Positions 60,110 through 64,000 of a stretch of 64,000 nt of DNA are shown in pieces. How positions within the stretch are numbered: position 1 is the first letter of the stretch; the number at the start of each line of letters is the position of its first letter. The stretch spans positions 10,758 to 74,757 of the IMG/VR virus record IMGVR_UViG_3300028844_005363; one strand, 5' to 3'. Position numbers and translations under genes: made by a program. This DNA is from a virus. Under the pieces are notes generated by a model. It searched no databases, had not been told where the DNA came from, and saw only the letters and a program-made list of their open reading frames with translations.

Positions 60110-60550
60110 ATGTTCGGAATCAAAAAACTTTTAGAAGGCAAATTAAAAGCCTTGGGTATCAAAGTACATAAGGTTGAAAACAAAAATCTTATGGAAGCTA
60201 TCGTAGCTGGTGCGGTTCTTGTTGCCTACTCTGATGGTGATTGTTCAGACGATGAACTTCTTAAGTTACATAACATTGTTGAGTCGAACGAAAATCTTAA
60301 ACACTTCGGTAGTGAAGTAGGTAAGACAATCGACCTATACTGTAAAATGTATGAGTCAGGTGCGCGACTTGCAAAGGTTAAATTGCTTAAAGAACTTCGT
60401 GAAGTTGCTGCGAATGAAGAACAAAAGATTGAAGCTTTTGTTATCGCAATTGAAATTGCAGATGCAGATGGCAACATAGATGAAGCTGAATTAGCTATGC
60501 TACGTACCATCGGTAAAGAATTTGGGTTAAACCCAGATACCTACATTTAA
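60110..60550 (+). CDS. terB: TerB-family tellurite-resistance/co-chaperone-like protein
   Basis: VAYSDGDCSDDEL and IADADGNIDEAEL repeats. Confidence 0.88.
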   Translation: MFGIKKLLEGKLKALGIKVHKVENKNLMEAIVAGAVLVAYSDGDCSDDELLKLHNIVESNENLKHFGSEVGKTIDLYCKMYESGARLAKVKLLKELREVAANEEQKIEAFVIAIEIADADGNIDEAELAMLRTIGKEFGLNPDTYI

Positions 60551-60746
60551 TGTGGGTGGTTCGGCGTAGGCAAATAATCTTAATTATTATTATTATGTCT
60601 TCGCAAACATAGCGCTTACGCTGAACCAATTAAGTACACTTAGTGTCAGAATGGACCCATATACAAATGTCCCTAAACTAGTTGTGTTGAGGTTTGGTAA
60701 ACCAAGAGCAGTAATTTACTTATAATAATCTATGGTGGTTATTTTC

Positions 60747-60788
60747 AGTCGGTAAGGTTTTTGTCATATTTTCCTTACCGACTTTTTT
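60747..60788 (+). terminator. Intrinsic terminator
   Basis: AGTCGGTAAGG...CCTTACCGACT plus T tract. Confidence 0.7.
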
Positions 60789-60942
60789 ACCTGGAATGTA
60801 ATGGGTTAGCTGTGAATACGCTTGCAAGCTGTTCTTTTAAATTCACCCGCGCTAAACAATCGCAGCTAACACCGGTACATTTTGTGCCATAAACCCTAAT
60901 TTAACTTTATGTGGAATTATGGTGTTATTCAATTTAATACTC

Positions 60943-60967
60943 AGCCCTGTTTTTTACAGGGCTTTTT
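60943..60967 (+). terminator. Intrinsic terminator
   Basis: AGCCCTGT-TTTTT-ACAGGGCT plus T tract. Confidence 0.7.
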
Positions 60968-61129
60968 AGTATGTAACCCTGTGCATTGTTCTACACCTCA
61001 CAAAGAAACGGTCTTTGATAGTTTAACGAACTTAACGTAGGACAATGTACAGCGATGCATATTGCATCATAACTTTAAATAAATCTTAGGCGAAATATTT
61101 AGAGCAGTGGGTGAAAGACCCACAACTAT

Positions 61130-61254
61130 GCTTCTTGAAGCTCAGCAGTAGAGCGGCGGACTCTAATCCGTGTCAGTGTTAAGGACAGGTAATGAATTAC
61201 GTAATAAAAGCCTTATCAGCCTTTCCCGTGTCGGTGCAAATCCGATCAAGAAGC
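61130..61254 (+). tRNA. Aberrant tRNA-like RNA (CUA in anticodon position, 58-nt variable region)
   Basis: Acceptor GCTTCTTG/CAAGAAGC, D arm GCTC-AGCAGTA-GAGC, GCGGA-CTCTAA-TCCGT, T arm GTCGG-TGCAAAT-CCGAT. Confidence 0.65.
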
Positions 61255-61280
61255 AACTCATTTACAGTAGGAGGTACACC

Positions 61281-61715
61281 ATGAAAATAGATTGGAAAAC
61301 TGTATCTTCTTCTGAAGGTTACATTTCTATCAAAGCTGCCTTTGATGCAATAGCCGCTGAACAAAATAAGCGCTCTCAAAGATACCCGAACACGTACACT
61401 CACTATAAGAAACCAGAGCTGAAGCATTTGTTTGTTAAGGTTATAAACCGAGCCAAACACATTCATGCACGCACAGGTATTCCTATCGAAGTTGTACTTG
61501 AAAAGTGGGAGACTGCTAGAAAAGCTAGAAAGCACCCGCTGTTCAGTTTTTACTGTAGTACAACAGTTAAAGAATTTGAAAAACTTCCTATTAATCCTAA
61601 AAATCCTCTTGGTATTCGTGGCCTACGTAAAATGGTATGGAGCGACTATCAAGATAAAAATGAGAGAATGCGCGCATTTAAGCGTCGCAAGAAACTTTTT
61701 TTAAACAGAGTCTGA
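61281..61715 (+). CDS. Basic hypothetical protein
   Basis: AGGAGG RBS before MKIDWK. Confidence 0.8.
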   Translation: MKIDWKTVSSSEGYISIKAAFDAIAAEQNKRSQRYPNTYTHYKKPELKHLFVKVINRAKHIHARTGIPIEVVLEKWETARKARKHPLFSFYCSTTVKEFEKLPINPKNPLGIRGLRKMVWSDYQDKNERMRAFKRRKKLFLNRV

Positions 61716-61956
61716 CTGCTAGAAGCACAGTGTTAGTAGGTTCTTTGAGTGTACTGTGGTTGTGCACAGGGACTCTTGTAAGACAGAAAACTAACGAGTT
61801 AAGCTGCTGAATCCAAAACAAACACAAATAGTATTTGGATACGCGCTTTGGTGTACCACCCTATAAATCATCTCACACGTAAAGCCTTTAGGTGGAATAC
61901 GTGACAACCGTTCTTTTAGCTGGGCTGTGTGAGAACTAATTTTTAAGGATACCGTT

Positions 61957-62238
61957 ATGGTAAACAAAAACAGTTATATTCGTGGAGCTTATTTAGCTAC
62001 CAAAGATGGAAACCGGTACAGTAACGGTTATCTTGTTAAGGTTGACGAATCAGAATGTGTGATACTTACTGACTTCGGTAACTGCATCTCAATGTCTTTA
62101 GAAAGCGTTAAAGAACACTTTGAGCCATCTGATGCATGGATAGATTCTAGTAATGTTAACTACCCACACCCCTCGCTATACGAGCGCATAGAGGAACAGA
62201 TTAGTTTATTAGAGCATGCCTTAGATAAGGTTGCTTAA
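61957..62238 (+). CDS. Hypothetical protein, paralog family 3
   Basis: YSNG...ILTDFGN...ERIEEQI. Confidence 0.75.
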   Translation: MVNKNSYIRGAYLATKDGNRYSNGYLVKVDESECVILTDFGNCISMSLESVKEHFEPSDAWIDSSNVNYPHPSLYERIEEQISLLEHALDKVA

Positions 62239-62293
62239 TTACGTACTTACAATGGTTTAAGTACTTAACCCCTATAATTAAGAGTAAACCTTA

Positions 62294-62512
62294 ATGTTGA
62301 AAAAATTCACTAACTGGTTATTTTTTAAATTTCTTTGTAAGATTTTACGTGATGCACGTTTAAATGTTGCTACCCACAAAGCACAAAGAAGTCCTACCAA
62401 GAGCTATCTTGTTAAGGTAAAAGATGAAGCTGCTTGTGTTCGTCTTATTAAATACACTGGTTACGCTGTGCCAGAGGATATTTATGCAAAACCCAGTATT
62501 AGAAAAAAGTAA
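62294..62512 (+). CDS. Hypothetical protein
   Basis: 72-aa ORF. Confidence 0.5.
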   Translation: MLKKFTNWLFFKFLCKILRDARLNVATHKAQRSPTKSYLVKVKDEAACVRLIKYTGYAVPEDIYAKPSIRKK

Positions 62513-62789
62513 TATAAAAGTAGGTTTGCCTTTATTTTCTAGGGGGCATCTACCTTTTTACACCAATGCAGTTGTTACAAAAATTGATCATGAAAATGAG
62601 AAAGCTACTGTAATGACTGACTACGGTAATGTAATGAGCTTTAGTTACCACAGCTTAAATTATCATTACACAACAGCGCAGCAATACTTAGATGGTCTTG
62701 AACCTGAACCAATAATTCAACGTCTACAAATTCAGATTCGTAATCTGAATGAGCAGCTTGAATTACACCTGAATAGTGACTCGCAATAA
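62484..62789 (+). CDS. Hypothetical protein, paralog family 3
   Basis: YTNA...VMTDYGN...QRLQIQI; GAGGA RBS. Confidence 0.75.
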   Translation: MQNPVLEKSNIKVGLPLFSRGHLPFYTNAVVTKIDHENEKATVMTDYGNVMSFSYHSLNYHYTTAQQYLDGLEPEPIIQRLQIQIRNLNEQLELHLNSDSQ

Positions 62790-62938
62790 GTCATTATGGT
62801 GCTACTCCGAGCCTTGCGGAGTTGTCTAAATCCAGACTATAAAATGGTCGTATAAGCCCTGCATACGTTGTGTAAGGGCAACTAATTATTGTGGTTCTGG
62901 TGACAATATATAGTAAATCATTTGGTAAAGGAACTTTA

Positions 62939-63160
62939 ATGGATATTATGCAAAAAACAGCAGAAGCTTTTCTGGACCACATTGAAAAAATAGGTGCTGA
63001 AAATTACATTGAATGTACGTTCTCAAATAATACGGAACCAAGTAAATCTATTGTAGTTACTGTTGCTTACATTGAAGGTAAATCTCCTCACCAAAAACTT
63101 ATGGAAGCTGAAGAGCAAATCCAAGAGCTGAAAAATAAGCTTAATGAATTAAGTAAGTAA
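62939..63160 (+). CDS. Hypothetical protein
   Basis: AAGGA RBS; GAENYIE...GKSPHQ. Confidence 0.7.
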   Translation: MDIMQKTAEAFLDHIEKIGAENYIECTFSNNTEPSKSIVVTVAYIEGKSPHQKLMEAEEQIQELKNKLNELSK

Positions 63161-63199
63161 AGCCATGAAAGGTAATCAAACCATTCAATAGGATTTTAT

Positions 63200-63409
63200 A
63201 TGTATAAACTGTTTAAGATTAGTATGCTACTACCTTCATGGTTAGTGATGCAGGTTGTTTGGTCAGTGATTTTAGTATTAGCGATATTACTTACAATATT
63301 GCTTAATAGCCCAAATGTACTCGCACCTAAGCGACCAACATTCGCCAGTGTTAGTACCTTCTACCGAGAGTCTTTGGTAGGGATACGTAAATGGCTAAGT
63401 ACAATTTAA
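63200..63409 (+). CDS. Membrane protein
   Basis: Long hydrophobic segment; AGGA RBS. Confidence 0.65.
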   Translation: MYKLFKISMLLPSWLVMQVVWSVILVLAILLTILLNSPNVLAPKRPTFASVSTFYRESLVGIRKWLSTI

Positions 63410-63413
63410 TAAT

Positions 63414-63426
63414 GCTGCTACGCAGC
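63414..63426 (+). promoter_or_regulatory. Triloop hairpin promoter candidate (class B) upstream of RNA genes
   Basis: GCTGC-TAC-GCAGC. Confidence 0.55.
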
Positions 63427-63483
63427 TATTTCGATACAAAAATTCAGACCGAGTGATAATGTATCTTGGTCGCCACATTATAT

Positions 63484-63606
63484 GGGCGTACTTTGGTGTC
63501 AAGCCAACCTTGAGAACGGTTCGATTCCGTTGGTCACTATGGGTTAATAGTGATTGTGTGGTGCTAAGAGGATGGTGAAGCGGGTTCGAGTCCCGCACGC
63601 CCCCCA
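63484..63606 (+). ncRNA. tRNA-like RNA with two T arms and encoded CCA
   Basis: GGGCGT/ACGCCC-C-CCA; AACGG-TTCGATT-CCGTT; GCGGG-TTCGAGT-CCCGC. Confidence 0.6.
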
Positions 63607-63612
63607 AATTGA

Positions 63613-64000
63613 GAAATACTGCCCGAATCCCTTTATGGTTAAGACAGTATTTCAATAGTCTGGTTGTTGACAAAACGTTGTGTGTGGAGCGAAATCTAGT
63701 TGAGCTTTGAAGCATACGATGCCCGTAAGGGGATTGCTGTACTTGATACACAAGCATTGTAATACTAGATAAAGTTCGATTACTTCATAATCCTAGCCCC
63801 AGCAAAGTAGGTTGGTAAGCCTACTAACTAATTCTGCGTTCCCTTTAAATAGCCTATCAAGCTAACTATCGTAAGGTAGTAGGGGATGCGGGAGTAGTAA
63901 AGATGATAACCGATGGTAAAGGGAGATAATGCTCCTGACTACGACTAGGCATCTTTGCACAGACCCCGGACAGCACAGTCTGCCTAAAAGCCGATTGGTT
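63613..64000 (+). ncRNA. Large multi-branched structured RNA, probably continues past the window edge
   Basis: GNRA-capped hairpins, three-way junction closed by a 13-bp G-U-rich helix, no plus-strand ORF in the track. Confidence 0.55.

Follow-up and report, generated by a model that had tools for sequence, protein, structure and literature searches.

What kind of RNA is encoded by the hairpin-rich DNA at the right-hand end of the viral contig IMGVR_UViG_3300028844_005363? The window, that is, the whole 64,000-nucleotide (nt) stretch that we analysed, corresponds to bases 10758-74757 of this 74,757-base-pair (bp) contig, and its base 64000 is the end of the contig. The original prediction saw here, from position 63613, the start of a large and ornate non-coding RNA of at least 390 nt, next to transfer RNA (tRNA)-like genes and belonging to a class such as GOLLD, ROOL or the group I and II introns, or to a new one. 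Our analysis indicates that the RNA is real, ornate and furnished with a GNRA hairpin, but that it is compact. What we call module A, about 230 nt at 63606-63835 on the + strand, is a complete member of a widespread family of phage RNAs that is absent from Rfam 15. It ends near 63835, similarity to its relatives stopping at 63824, and the helices in the remaining 165 nt of the window (module B) do not join it in one large RNA starting here.

The lead to this family came when GenBank phages were searched by blastn and yielded a single short match: over 56 nt surrounding the first hairpin, the window is 84% identical to Acinetobacter phage EAb13, where the match lies in a 1.7-kb stretch holding a tRNA-Asn gene and only near-zero-scoring 'hypothetical' open reading frame (ORF) calls. 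An exact scan for CCCGNATCCCTNTATGGTTAAGAC found 21 IMG/VR contigs (13-290 kb) and 45 metagenome stretches; in 185,579 species genomes the same scan found two contigs only, both from metagenome-assembled genomes. When the loop pattern was relaxed, the viral contigs found were these 21 and no others. A short blastn query with the loop brought up 38 GenBank phage records, the carriers including the Acinetobacter siphophages EAb13, TCUP2199 and Mystique, the N4-like Gamaleyavirus, members of the Ackermannviridae (e.g. Ag3, SKML-39 and GG32) and Vibrio phage YC. None of the 38 annotates an RNA at the site of the loop: 35 have no feature there and three have a 'hypothetical protein'. Finally, a covariance model built from eight short members with the window left out (R1) gave 75 matches overall, the window among them. 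A full-text literature search on the motif and on RNAs of phage tRNA clusters found no description of the family, which may be listed among the 10,006 unnamed viral RNA candidates of Fremin et al. 2023 (PMC10690425).

The anatomy of the family was derived from alignments and with a parser, by which 42 members were parsed. Its elements follow each other in the order P0 5' strand, junction (A)AUGA, P1, AAUAGU, P2, (C/U)AA, P5 and P0 3' strand, which makes a four-way junction. Stem P1 has 8-10 bp and a 23-nt loop, CC(C/U)GNAUCCCUNUAUGGUUAAGA, with a closing G-C pair. P2, of 3-5 bp, encloses a domain of 26-140 nt in which there is always a GNRA hairpin of 3-4 bp (GUAA, GCAA or GUGA), and P5 has 5 bp and a loop of 7-8 nt, mostly the 7-nt UGGAAAG. 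Measured from P1 to P5, members span 102-217 nt; the size of the conserved unit in other phages is 102-220 nt. The P1 loop is more conserved than its stem: the flanking stem differs in every copy yet still pairs, and loop and junctions (UGA, AAUAGU, CAA) together hold about 40 nearly invariant nucleotides. The strands of P2 likewise read CUGG/CCAG, CCAG/CUGG, GAAG/CUUC, CCGC/GCGG, UCGG/CCGA or CAGG/CCUG in different members, and the short forms carry a 4-bp stem on GUAA, GCAA or GUGA in the versions CUUG/CAAG, UAUG/CAUA, ACUG/CAGU, GCUG/CAGC and GCCA/UGGC. G-U pairs are frequent, and good folding is confined to the + strand. The family can be described as the GGUUAAGAC-loop four-way-junction RNA and is in no RNA catalogue that we searched.

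Covariation among homologs, which had been proposed as a check on the structure, is strong in every stem of module A inside the outer stem P0. In a plain MAFFT alignment of nine long-form members, window included, with the structure taken from RNAalifold, 91.9% of the cells are paired and double changes occur at 26 of 36 pairs; the covariation score of 0.714 compares with 0.214 for shuffled alignments, was reached by none of 500 shuffles and dropped to 0.138 or less when the partners were slid. In an alignment of 50 distinct members, which was fitted to the covariance model, the corresponding values are 95.0% of cells paired, double changes at 20 of 21 pairs, and a score of 0.738 vs 0.175 (0 of 500 shuffles), with slid partners at no more than 0.095.

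The copy in the window is an ornate long form (Table 1) and the only one on the contig according to the R1 search. Its closest relatives, which like other retrieved loci are designated here by L numbers (L099, L096 and L135), share 80% identity with it over 209 nt. R1 recovers window positions 63605-63716 at 69.1 bits (E 1.1e-12); the alignment ends early because of the long insert. The folding energy of 63610-64000 is well below that of shuffled sequence on the + strand (z -3.22) and less so on the - strand (z -0.95). The helices named in the original prediction are all found where it placed them, and P1, the GNRA hairpin and P5 have turned out to be conserved, covarying stems. For the last of these the reading changes slightly: the hairpin at 63806-63825 is better taken as GUAGG/CCUAC with an 8-nt loop than as AGTAGGTT-GGTA-AGCCTACT, since P5 in the relatives has 5 bp and a 7-nt loop. 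Within the variable domain there is a candidate pseudoknot, in which AUCUAG (63694-63699) can pair with CUAGAU (63765-63770); its support is thin, as the sole other version seen, read from the sequences, is GCUAGG/CCUAGC in L093.

Table 1. Structural features at the right-hand end of the window (RNA letters; all positions refer to the window).
Feature	Position	Strand	Basis or remark
tRNA-like RNA, 123 nt	63484-63606	+	6-bp acceptor-type stem GGGCGU/ACGCCC, two T arms, CCCCA end; read from sequence
P0 5' strand AAUUG (63607-63611) and junction J0/1 UGA	63607-63612	+	relatives have (A)AUGAG at this place
Stem P1, 9 bp, GAAATACTG/CAGTATTTC	63613-63621 / 63645-63653	+	compensatory changes at 8 of 9 pairs (50-member alignment)
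P1 loop, invariant 23 nt, CCCGNAUCCCUNUAUGGUUAAGA (CCCGAAUCCCUUUAUGGUUAAGA in the window)	63622-63644	+	exact match to the family pattern
Junction J1/2, AAUAGU	63654-63659	+	conserved at the nucleotide level (alignments)
Stem P2, CUGG/CCAG, closing a 135-nt variable domain	63660-63663 / 63799-63802	+	covariation
9-bp helix in the variable domain	63677-63685 / 63712-63720	+	7 of 9 pairs compensatory, 98.8% of cells paired (MAFFT long-form alignment)
3-bp hairpin inside the 9-bp helix	63688-63690 / 63704-63706	+	loop contains AUCUAG 63694-63699
P3 GNRA hairpin, CCC-GUAA-GGG	63722-63731	+	family element
Junction J2/5 CAA and stem P5 GUAGG/CCUAC with 8-nt loop UUGGUAAG	63803-63825; P5 63807-63811 / 63820-63824	+	5 of 5 pairs compensatory
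3' junction and P0 3' strand UAAUU (63829-63833); end of module A	63826-63835	+	homology to L099, L096 and L135 stops at 63824
Module B (165 nt), cut by the contig end	63836-64000	+	folding
13-bp helix of module B	63832-63844 / 63881-63893	+	encloses hairpins UAGC-CUAUCAA-GCUA and ACUAUC-GUAA-GGUAGU; folding energy

The limits of the unit are best seen in other phages. At many loci the family RNA is flanked by tRNA genes, 30-40 nt away on the upstream side and 130-350 nt away on the downstream side. All tRNAs called by ARAGORN in 50 unique loci are on the strand of the RNA, and 21 of the 50 loci have one within 1 kb. An intrinsic terminator directly follows P5 in L088, L091, L103, L105 and L140. 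No protein family travels with the RNA, the largest cluster of neighbouring ORFs covering 4 of 51 loci. Flanking tRNAs on the same strand, terminators of its own and zero linked protein families argue for a discrete small RNA, which is therefore cut from a polycistronic tRNA transcript or else expressed from a gene of its own. With a unit of this size elsewhere, bounded by tRNA genes or by a terminator within about 30 nt, the start of an RNA of at least 390 nt is not what the locus holds.

None of the established classes accounts for module A. Rfam 15 has no match in the window at the gathering score, and neither module A nor module B matches GOLLD, ROOL, group I or II introns, RNase P, tRNA or YrlA down to E <= 10. 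At that threshold the region 62700-64000 gives two weak matches only, both in the upstream tRNA-like element, and a match to group II D1-D4 (13.6 bits, E 9.5) lies elsewhere, at 61105-61209. The GOLLD and ROOL models likewise found nothing in the loci of 11 relatives or in a minimal member. The search itself was working, as it detected a group I intron (66 bits, L089) and 35 tRNAs in relatives. Of the two options originally offered, membership in one of the known classes thus falls away, while a class absent from Rfam is what the locus contains. GOLLD and ROOL are roughly 500-800 nt long. They resemble module A in being phage-borne, GNRA-rich and often beside tRNA genes, and differ from its family, which is built on a single four-way junction within a much shorter conserved unit.

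The closest parallels are with tRNAs and their mimics. As in tRNA (RF00005), four helices follow in the same 5'-to-3' order at one junction, P0, P1, P2 and P5 standing in the places of the acceptor, D, anticodon and T arms; the last hairpin matches a T arm in size, its stem being 5 bp and its loop 7 nt long; the 3' part of the P1 loop, AUGGUUAAGAC, looks like a D stem together with the 3' half of a D loop; and the genes lie among tRNA genes. Unlike tRNA, the family carries a 23-nt loop on a 9-bp 'D stem' and has 26-140 nt of variable domain in place of the anticodon arm; its junctions are 3-7 nt long, and its outer stem varies in length. The helix order, the size of P5 and the D-loop-like string are resemblances and not membership in tRNA. 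The species 1 and 2 RNAs of phage T4 (rnaC and rnaD) are also small, stable, non-decoding RNAs located among phage tRNA genes on the same strand and presumably released by tRNA processing, and rnaC carries UAUGGUUGAGA, identical in 10 of 11 letters to UAUGGUUAAGA of the family. To our knowledge, no function has been found for these two RNAs after decades. R1 with its filters off nevertheless scores no more than 5.6 bits anywhere in the T4 tRNA cluster, which indicates no homology; module A lacks the true T arm and acceptor strand with which rnaC terminates, and rnaC and rnaD measure 119-139 nt, whereas members of the family contain a variable domain and measure 102-220 nt. Bacterial and phage Y RNAs of the YrlA type copy part of the tRNA shape without decoding and occur in phage tRNA islands (Chen et al. 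2014, PMC4201824). Canonical T and D arms and a Ro-binding helix are all missing from module A, and a search of the whole contig with the YrlA model (RF02553) matched only bases 606-670 of the contig and a T arm at window 63580-63596, leaving module A unmatched.

We favour, with a probability of roughly 0.55, the view that 63606-63835 (+) is a complete gene encoding one member of an uncatalogued RNA family of virulent phages, whose product would be a stable, trans-acting, tRNA-shaped RNA. One part of this view, that the RNA is co-transcribed with its neighbours, freed by host enzymes and kept in trans as a processed stable species, appears likely. Module A would be transcribed together with the adjoining tRNA or tRNA-like genes, released by tRNA-processing enzymes of the host (RNase P, and RNase E or Z), and would then persist as a stable trans-acting RNA, like the species 1 and 2 RNAs of T4. 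About 4% of the sampled words occur in three metatranscriptome runs, a result that speaks neither for nor against expression. More tentative is the further idea that the RNA imitates the elbow of tRNA and thereby occupies a tRNA-binding factor. The P5 loop, whose first nucleotide is U and whose fifth is A in most members, might act as a T-loop and dock on the GG of the P1 loop, the 3' half of which would stand in for D loop and D stem, so that a tRNA-like L shape could result. In this shape the RNA would offer its invariant loop to some factor that is conserved among widely differing bacteria, be it a tRNA-binding enzyme or a tRNA-directed defence nuclease, and would occupy or redirect that factor instead of decoding. 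That the loop stays invariant in phages whose hosts differ so much points either to a demanding tertiary fold or to a target that is conserved among bacteria.

Several observations weigh against this view. On 63606-64000 neither RF00005 nor ARAGORN detects a tRNA, the tRNA shape being deduced from strand order and loop motifs, and module A has no CCA end. The outer stem is the softest part of the model: P0 is clear in about 14 of the 42 parsed members (6-12 bp next to the junction) and weak or absent in the others, and in the window AAUUG pairs with UAAUU over 5 bp only. Pairs of non-cognate flanks average 5.8 bp vs 7.1 bp for the true ones, that is, they are nearly as long, so that P0 is not a firm family feature. 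On the other side of the balance, P0 reaches 9-12 bp in Gamaleyavirus, L087, L095, L106, L085 and L096, and relatives show compensatory differences in it (CUCGG/CCGAG, CUAGGU/ACCUAG). The U and A of the P5 loop have exceptions in L111, L114 and L129, and this T-loop signature is partly circular because the parser demanded both nucleotides. A search for an antisense target of the loop in the 16S, 23S and 5S ribosomal RNAs, the transfer-messenger RNA (tmRNA) region, the RNase P RNA and three tRNAs of E. coli yielded nothing convincing; the best match, at 16S 183-215 (z -2.5), is unconvincing since it lies in a variable region and eight tests were made. Finally, no terminator or tRNA signal was found between 63826 and 64000, so that modules A and B could act as one molecule here.

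Module A belongs to an island of tRNA-like RNAs. Its upstream neighbour, the element at 63484-63606, justifies the original expectation of tRNA-like genes nearby, although ARAGORN calls no tRNA on it, and it is outside the module A family. Its acceptor stem and the two T arms are retained in the predicted fold. Its inner part reaches 18.3 bits with the cyano_tmRNA (permuted) model and has the layout of T arm and closed stem seen in permuted tmRNA and in YrlA modules. Its acceptor-type stem, its pair of T arms and its CCCCA end could allow tRNA-processing enzymes to set the 5' end of module A, which is probably fixed by the 3' end of this element. Further off, a permissive search found a tRNA gene at window 61131-61254 (34.7 bits on the Rfam tRNA model, gathering score 29) with the anticodon loop CUCUAAU, the anticodon CUA of amber-suppressor type and a 58-nt insert at the position of the variable arm; it had been missed by ARAGORN, which makes zero tRNA calls over the whole contig, and by the Rfam run with default filters. 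The YrlA-like (bacterial Y RNA) module already mentioned (C1:606-670 in contig numbering, equal to L002 606-670; 35.6 bits, E 5e-6, family cut-off 69) has the order T arm, closed acceptor-like stem, D arm; a Ro60/Rsr (TROVE) gene was looked for on the contig and none was found. A CUA tRNA with an insert, a YrlA-like module, an RNA with two T arms and zero ordinary tRNA genes fit the picture of an island of tRNA mimics.

A broader, speculative alternative is that the family constitutes a new functional class of RNA. Its invariant 23-nt loop and its junctions would then serve as a catalytic centre or as a decoy resembling the tRNA elbow, by which phages with widely differing bacterial hosts would act on one universally conserved host machine (for example a tRNA-processing, tRNA-modifying or tRNA-cleaving defence enzyme); in this phage the RNA would be part of an island of tRNA mimics taking the place of ordinary tRNA genes. 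We regard this possibility as doubtful.

An explanation closer to the original prediction is that module A, module B and the sequence beyond the contig end make up one ornate RNA of more than 390 nt of the GOLLD/ROOL kind, module A being its conserved 5' domain. The gap in signals between 63826 and 64000 is compatible with it. Module B, furthermore, folds better than shuffled sequence on the + strand only (63827-64000: z -2.68 on +, z +1.77 on -); in two marine runs there are Logan contigs that reach 183 and 269 nt beyond base 64000; and the modules of EAb13 and Gamaleyavirus lie within gene-free stretches of 0.9-1.9 kb. However, homology within the family ceases at P5/P0 in every relative, and elsewhere the module is delimited by the tRNA genes that flank it or has a terminator of its own at its end. 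In the relatives, the gene-free stretches contain several units that are conserved separately from each other, among them EAb13's long tRNA-like RNAs. No large-RNA family of Rfam scores, and no homolog of module B was found by nhmmer or blastn in 150 retrieved loci, nor by pattern scans with 20 and 30 nt. We conclude that a single large RNA is unlikely.

On our preferred view, in which 63606-63835 is a complete gene, module B would be a separate, lineage-specific structured stretch of the same transcript. The helices originally described in it (GGGAG/CTCCT, and the 13-bp helix together with the hairpins that it encloses) occur in the sequence, the evidence for them being folding energy, and further helices are predicted after the 13-bp helix. 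The hairpin UAGC-CUAUCAA-GCUA reads like an anticodon stem-loop, with a 7-nt loop, U at position 2 and A at position 6. Another long tRNA-like RNA, like that following the family module in L096, may have its 5' part in module B; alternatively, module B may be a lineage-specific extension of module A. Two minus-strand open frames at 63862-64000, which extend beyond the contig end, were considered as genes and set aside, their translations being unlike protein.

A ribozyme, for example of a new self-cleaving class that cuts the polycistronic tRNA transcript and has its active site in the loop and junctions, would be in line with the roughly 40 nearly invariant nucleotides there. Freely covarying stems and a peripheral domain of 26-140 nt also form a pattern typical of small ribozymes, and a location in phage RNA operons fits. 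Such an activity nevertheless seems improbable to us: RNase P and RNase E or Z already process transcripts of this type, the stand-alone copies with their own terminator would need no cutting, and no ribozyme family of Rfam matches at E <= 10. Still harder to sustain is a cis-acting riboswitch or leader controlling a downstream gene. The anatomy is aptamer-like, with conserved junctions and a GNRA contact, and in five loci a terminator stands directly after the element; but no downstream gene or protein neighbour is conserved, and what follows is often a tRNA gene and, in the window, non-coding DNA. We give this interpretation very little credence. The least credible proposal, that the loop encodes the short peptide ARIP[VIL]WLR after an in-frame AUG, GUG or UUG, as a small-protein gene or a tmRNA-like template, could cite the two variable loop positions, which are a synonymous Arg site and the first base of a Leu/Val/Ile codon, and an in-frame NUG 12 nt upstream in about half of the members, but we rejected it and judge the coding pattern coincidental, since members with a 1-nt bulge in P1 keep the AAUAGUC nucleotides in another frame, Gamaleyavirus has an in-frame UGA inside the loop, many members lack the start codon and all lack a Shine-Dalgarno sequence, the frames end at random lengths (13-70 amino acids (aa)), and P2 and P5 covary far beyond them.

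The islands in which phages keep their tRNA genes are usually annotated as tRNAs with empty spacers or tiny 'hypothetical proteins' between them, and one such spacer RNA is seen here to be a discrete family under strong selection. It is common to Ackermannviridae, N4-like phages, Acinetobacter siphophages, Vibrio phages and many uncultured phages of marine, freshwater and gut origin. Several carriers grow on laboratory strains of E. coli, Salmonella, Shigella or Acinetobacter, which makes the function directly testable. A correction of annotation also follows, as low-scoring 'hypothetical protein' calls in EAb13 overlie the RNA. In that phage (L085 1480-2790; OQ717042, about 32.9-34.3 kb) seven such calls with near-zero PHANOTATE scores cover an RNA array composed of two long tRNA-like RNAs (acceptor stem and T arm, with inserts of 80-100 nt), a long hairpin, the family member and a final terminator. 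In Escherichia phage KKP 3715 (Gamaleyavirus, L107 108-2010) a feature-free stretch of 1.9 kb lies upstream of a tRNA gene, and its family member has a 12-bp closing stem and the loop variant CCUG. One metagenome contig, L133, contains two copies of the family, at 2006-2146 and 2593-2730, about 590 nt apart.

By sequence relationship the source of the window is a marine N4-like phage: a conserved ATPase gene near the start of the contig has its best relatives, at about 50% identity, in the N4-like podophages Pollock, FSL SP-058, KpCHEMY26 and Pylas, and the sequencing runs that contain window DNA are marine metagenomes. R1 found no copy of the family within 10 kb of this ATPase gene in 80 N4-like loci, so the RNA appears sporadic in the group. 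Position 1 of the contig falls within an ORF; the two contig ends are consequently not simply adjacent and some sequence is missing. A homolog of this ORF was looked for in the 19-kb record of L099 and none was found, and an exact-pattern scan with the last 30 nt of the window matched no other viral contig. Ahead of the RNA-rich region 60550-64000 stands a gene for 146 aa (window 60110-60550), previously called terB, which has weak relatives (28-29% identity) in N4-like phages of Salmonella and E. coli. In a marine sample that is possibly the source of the contig, a second contig of 908 nt aligns to window 63686-63742 only (57 nt, 8 differences), and this suggests that another phage in that sample may carry a related long-form RNA.

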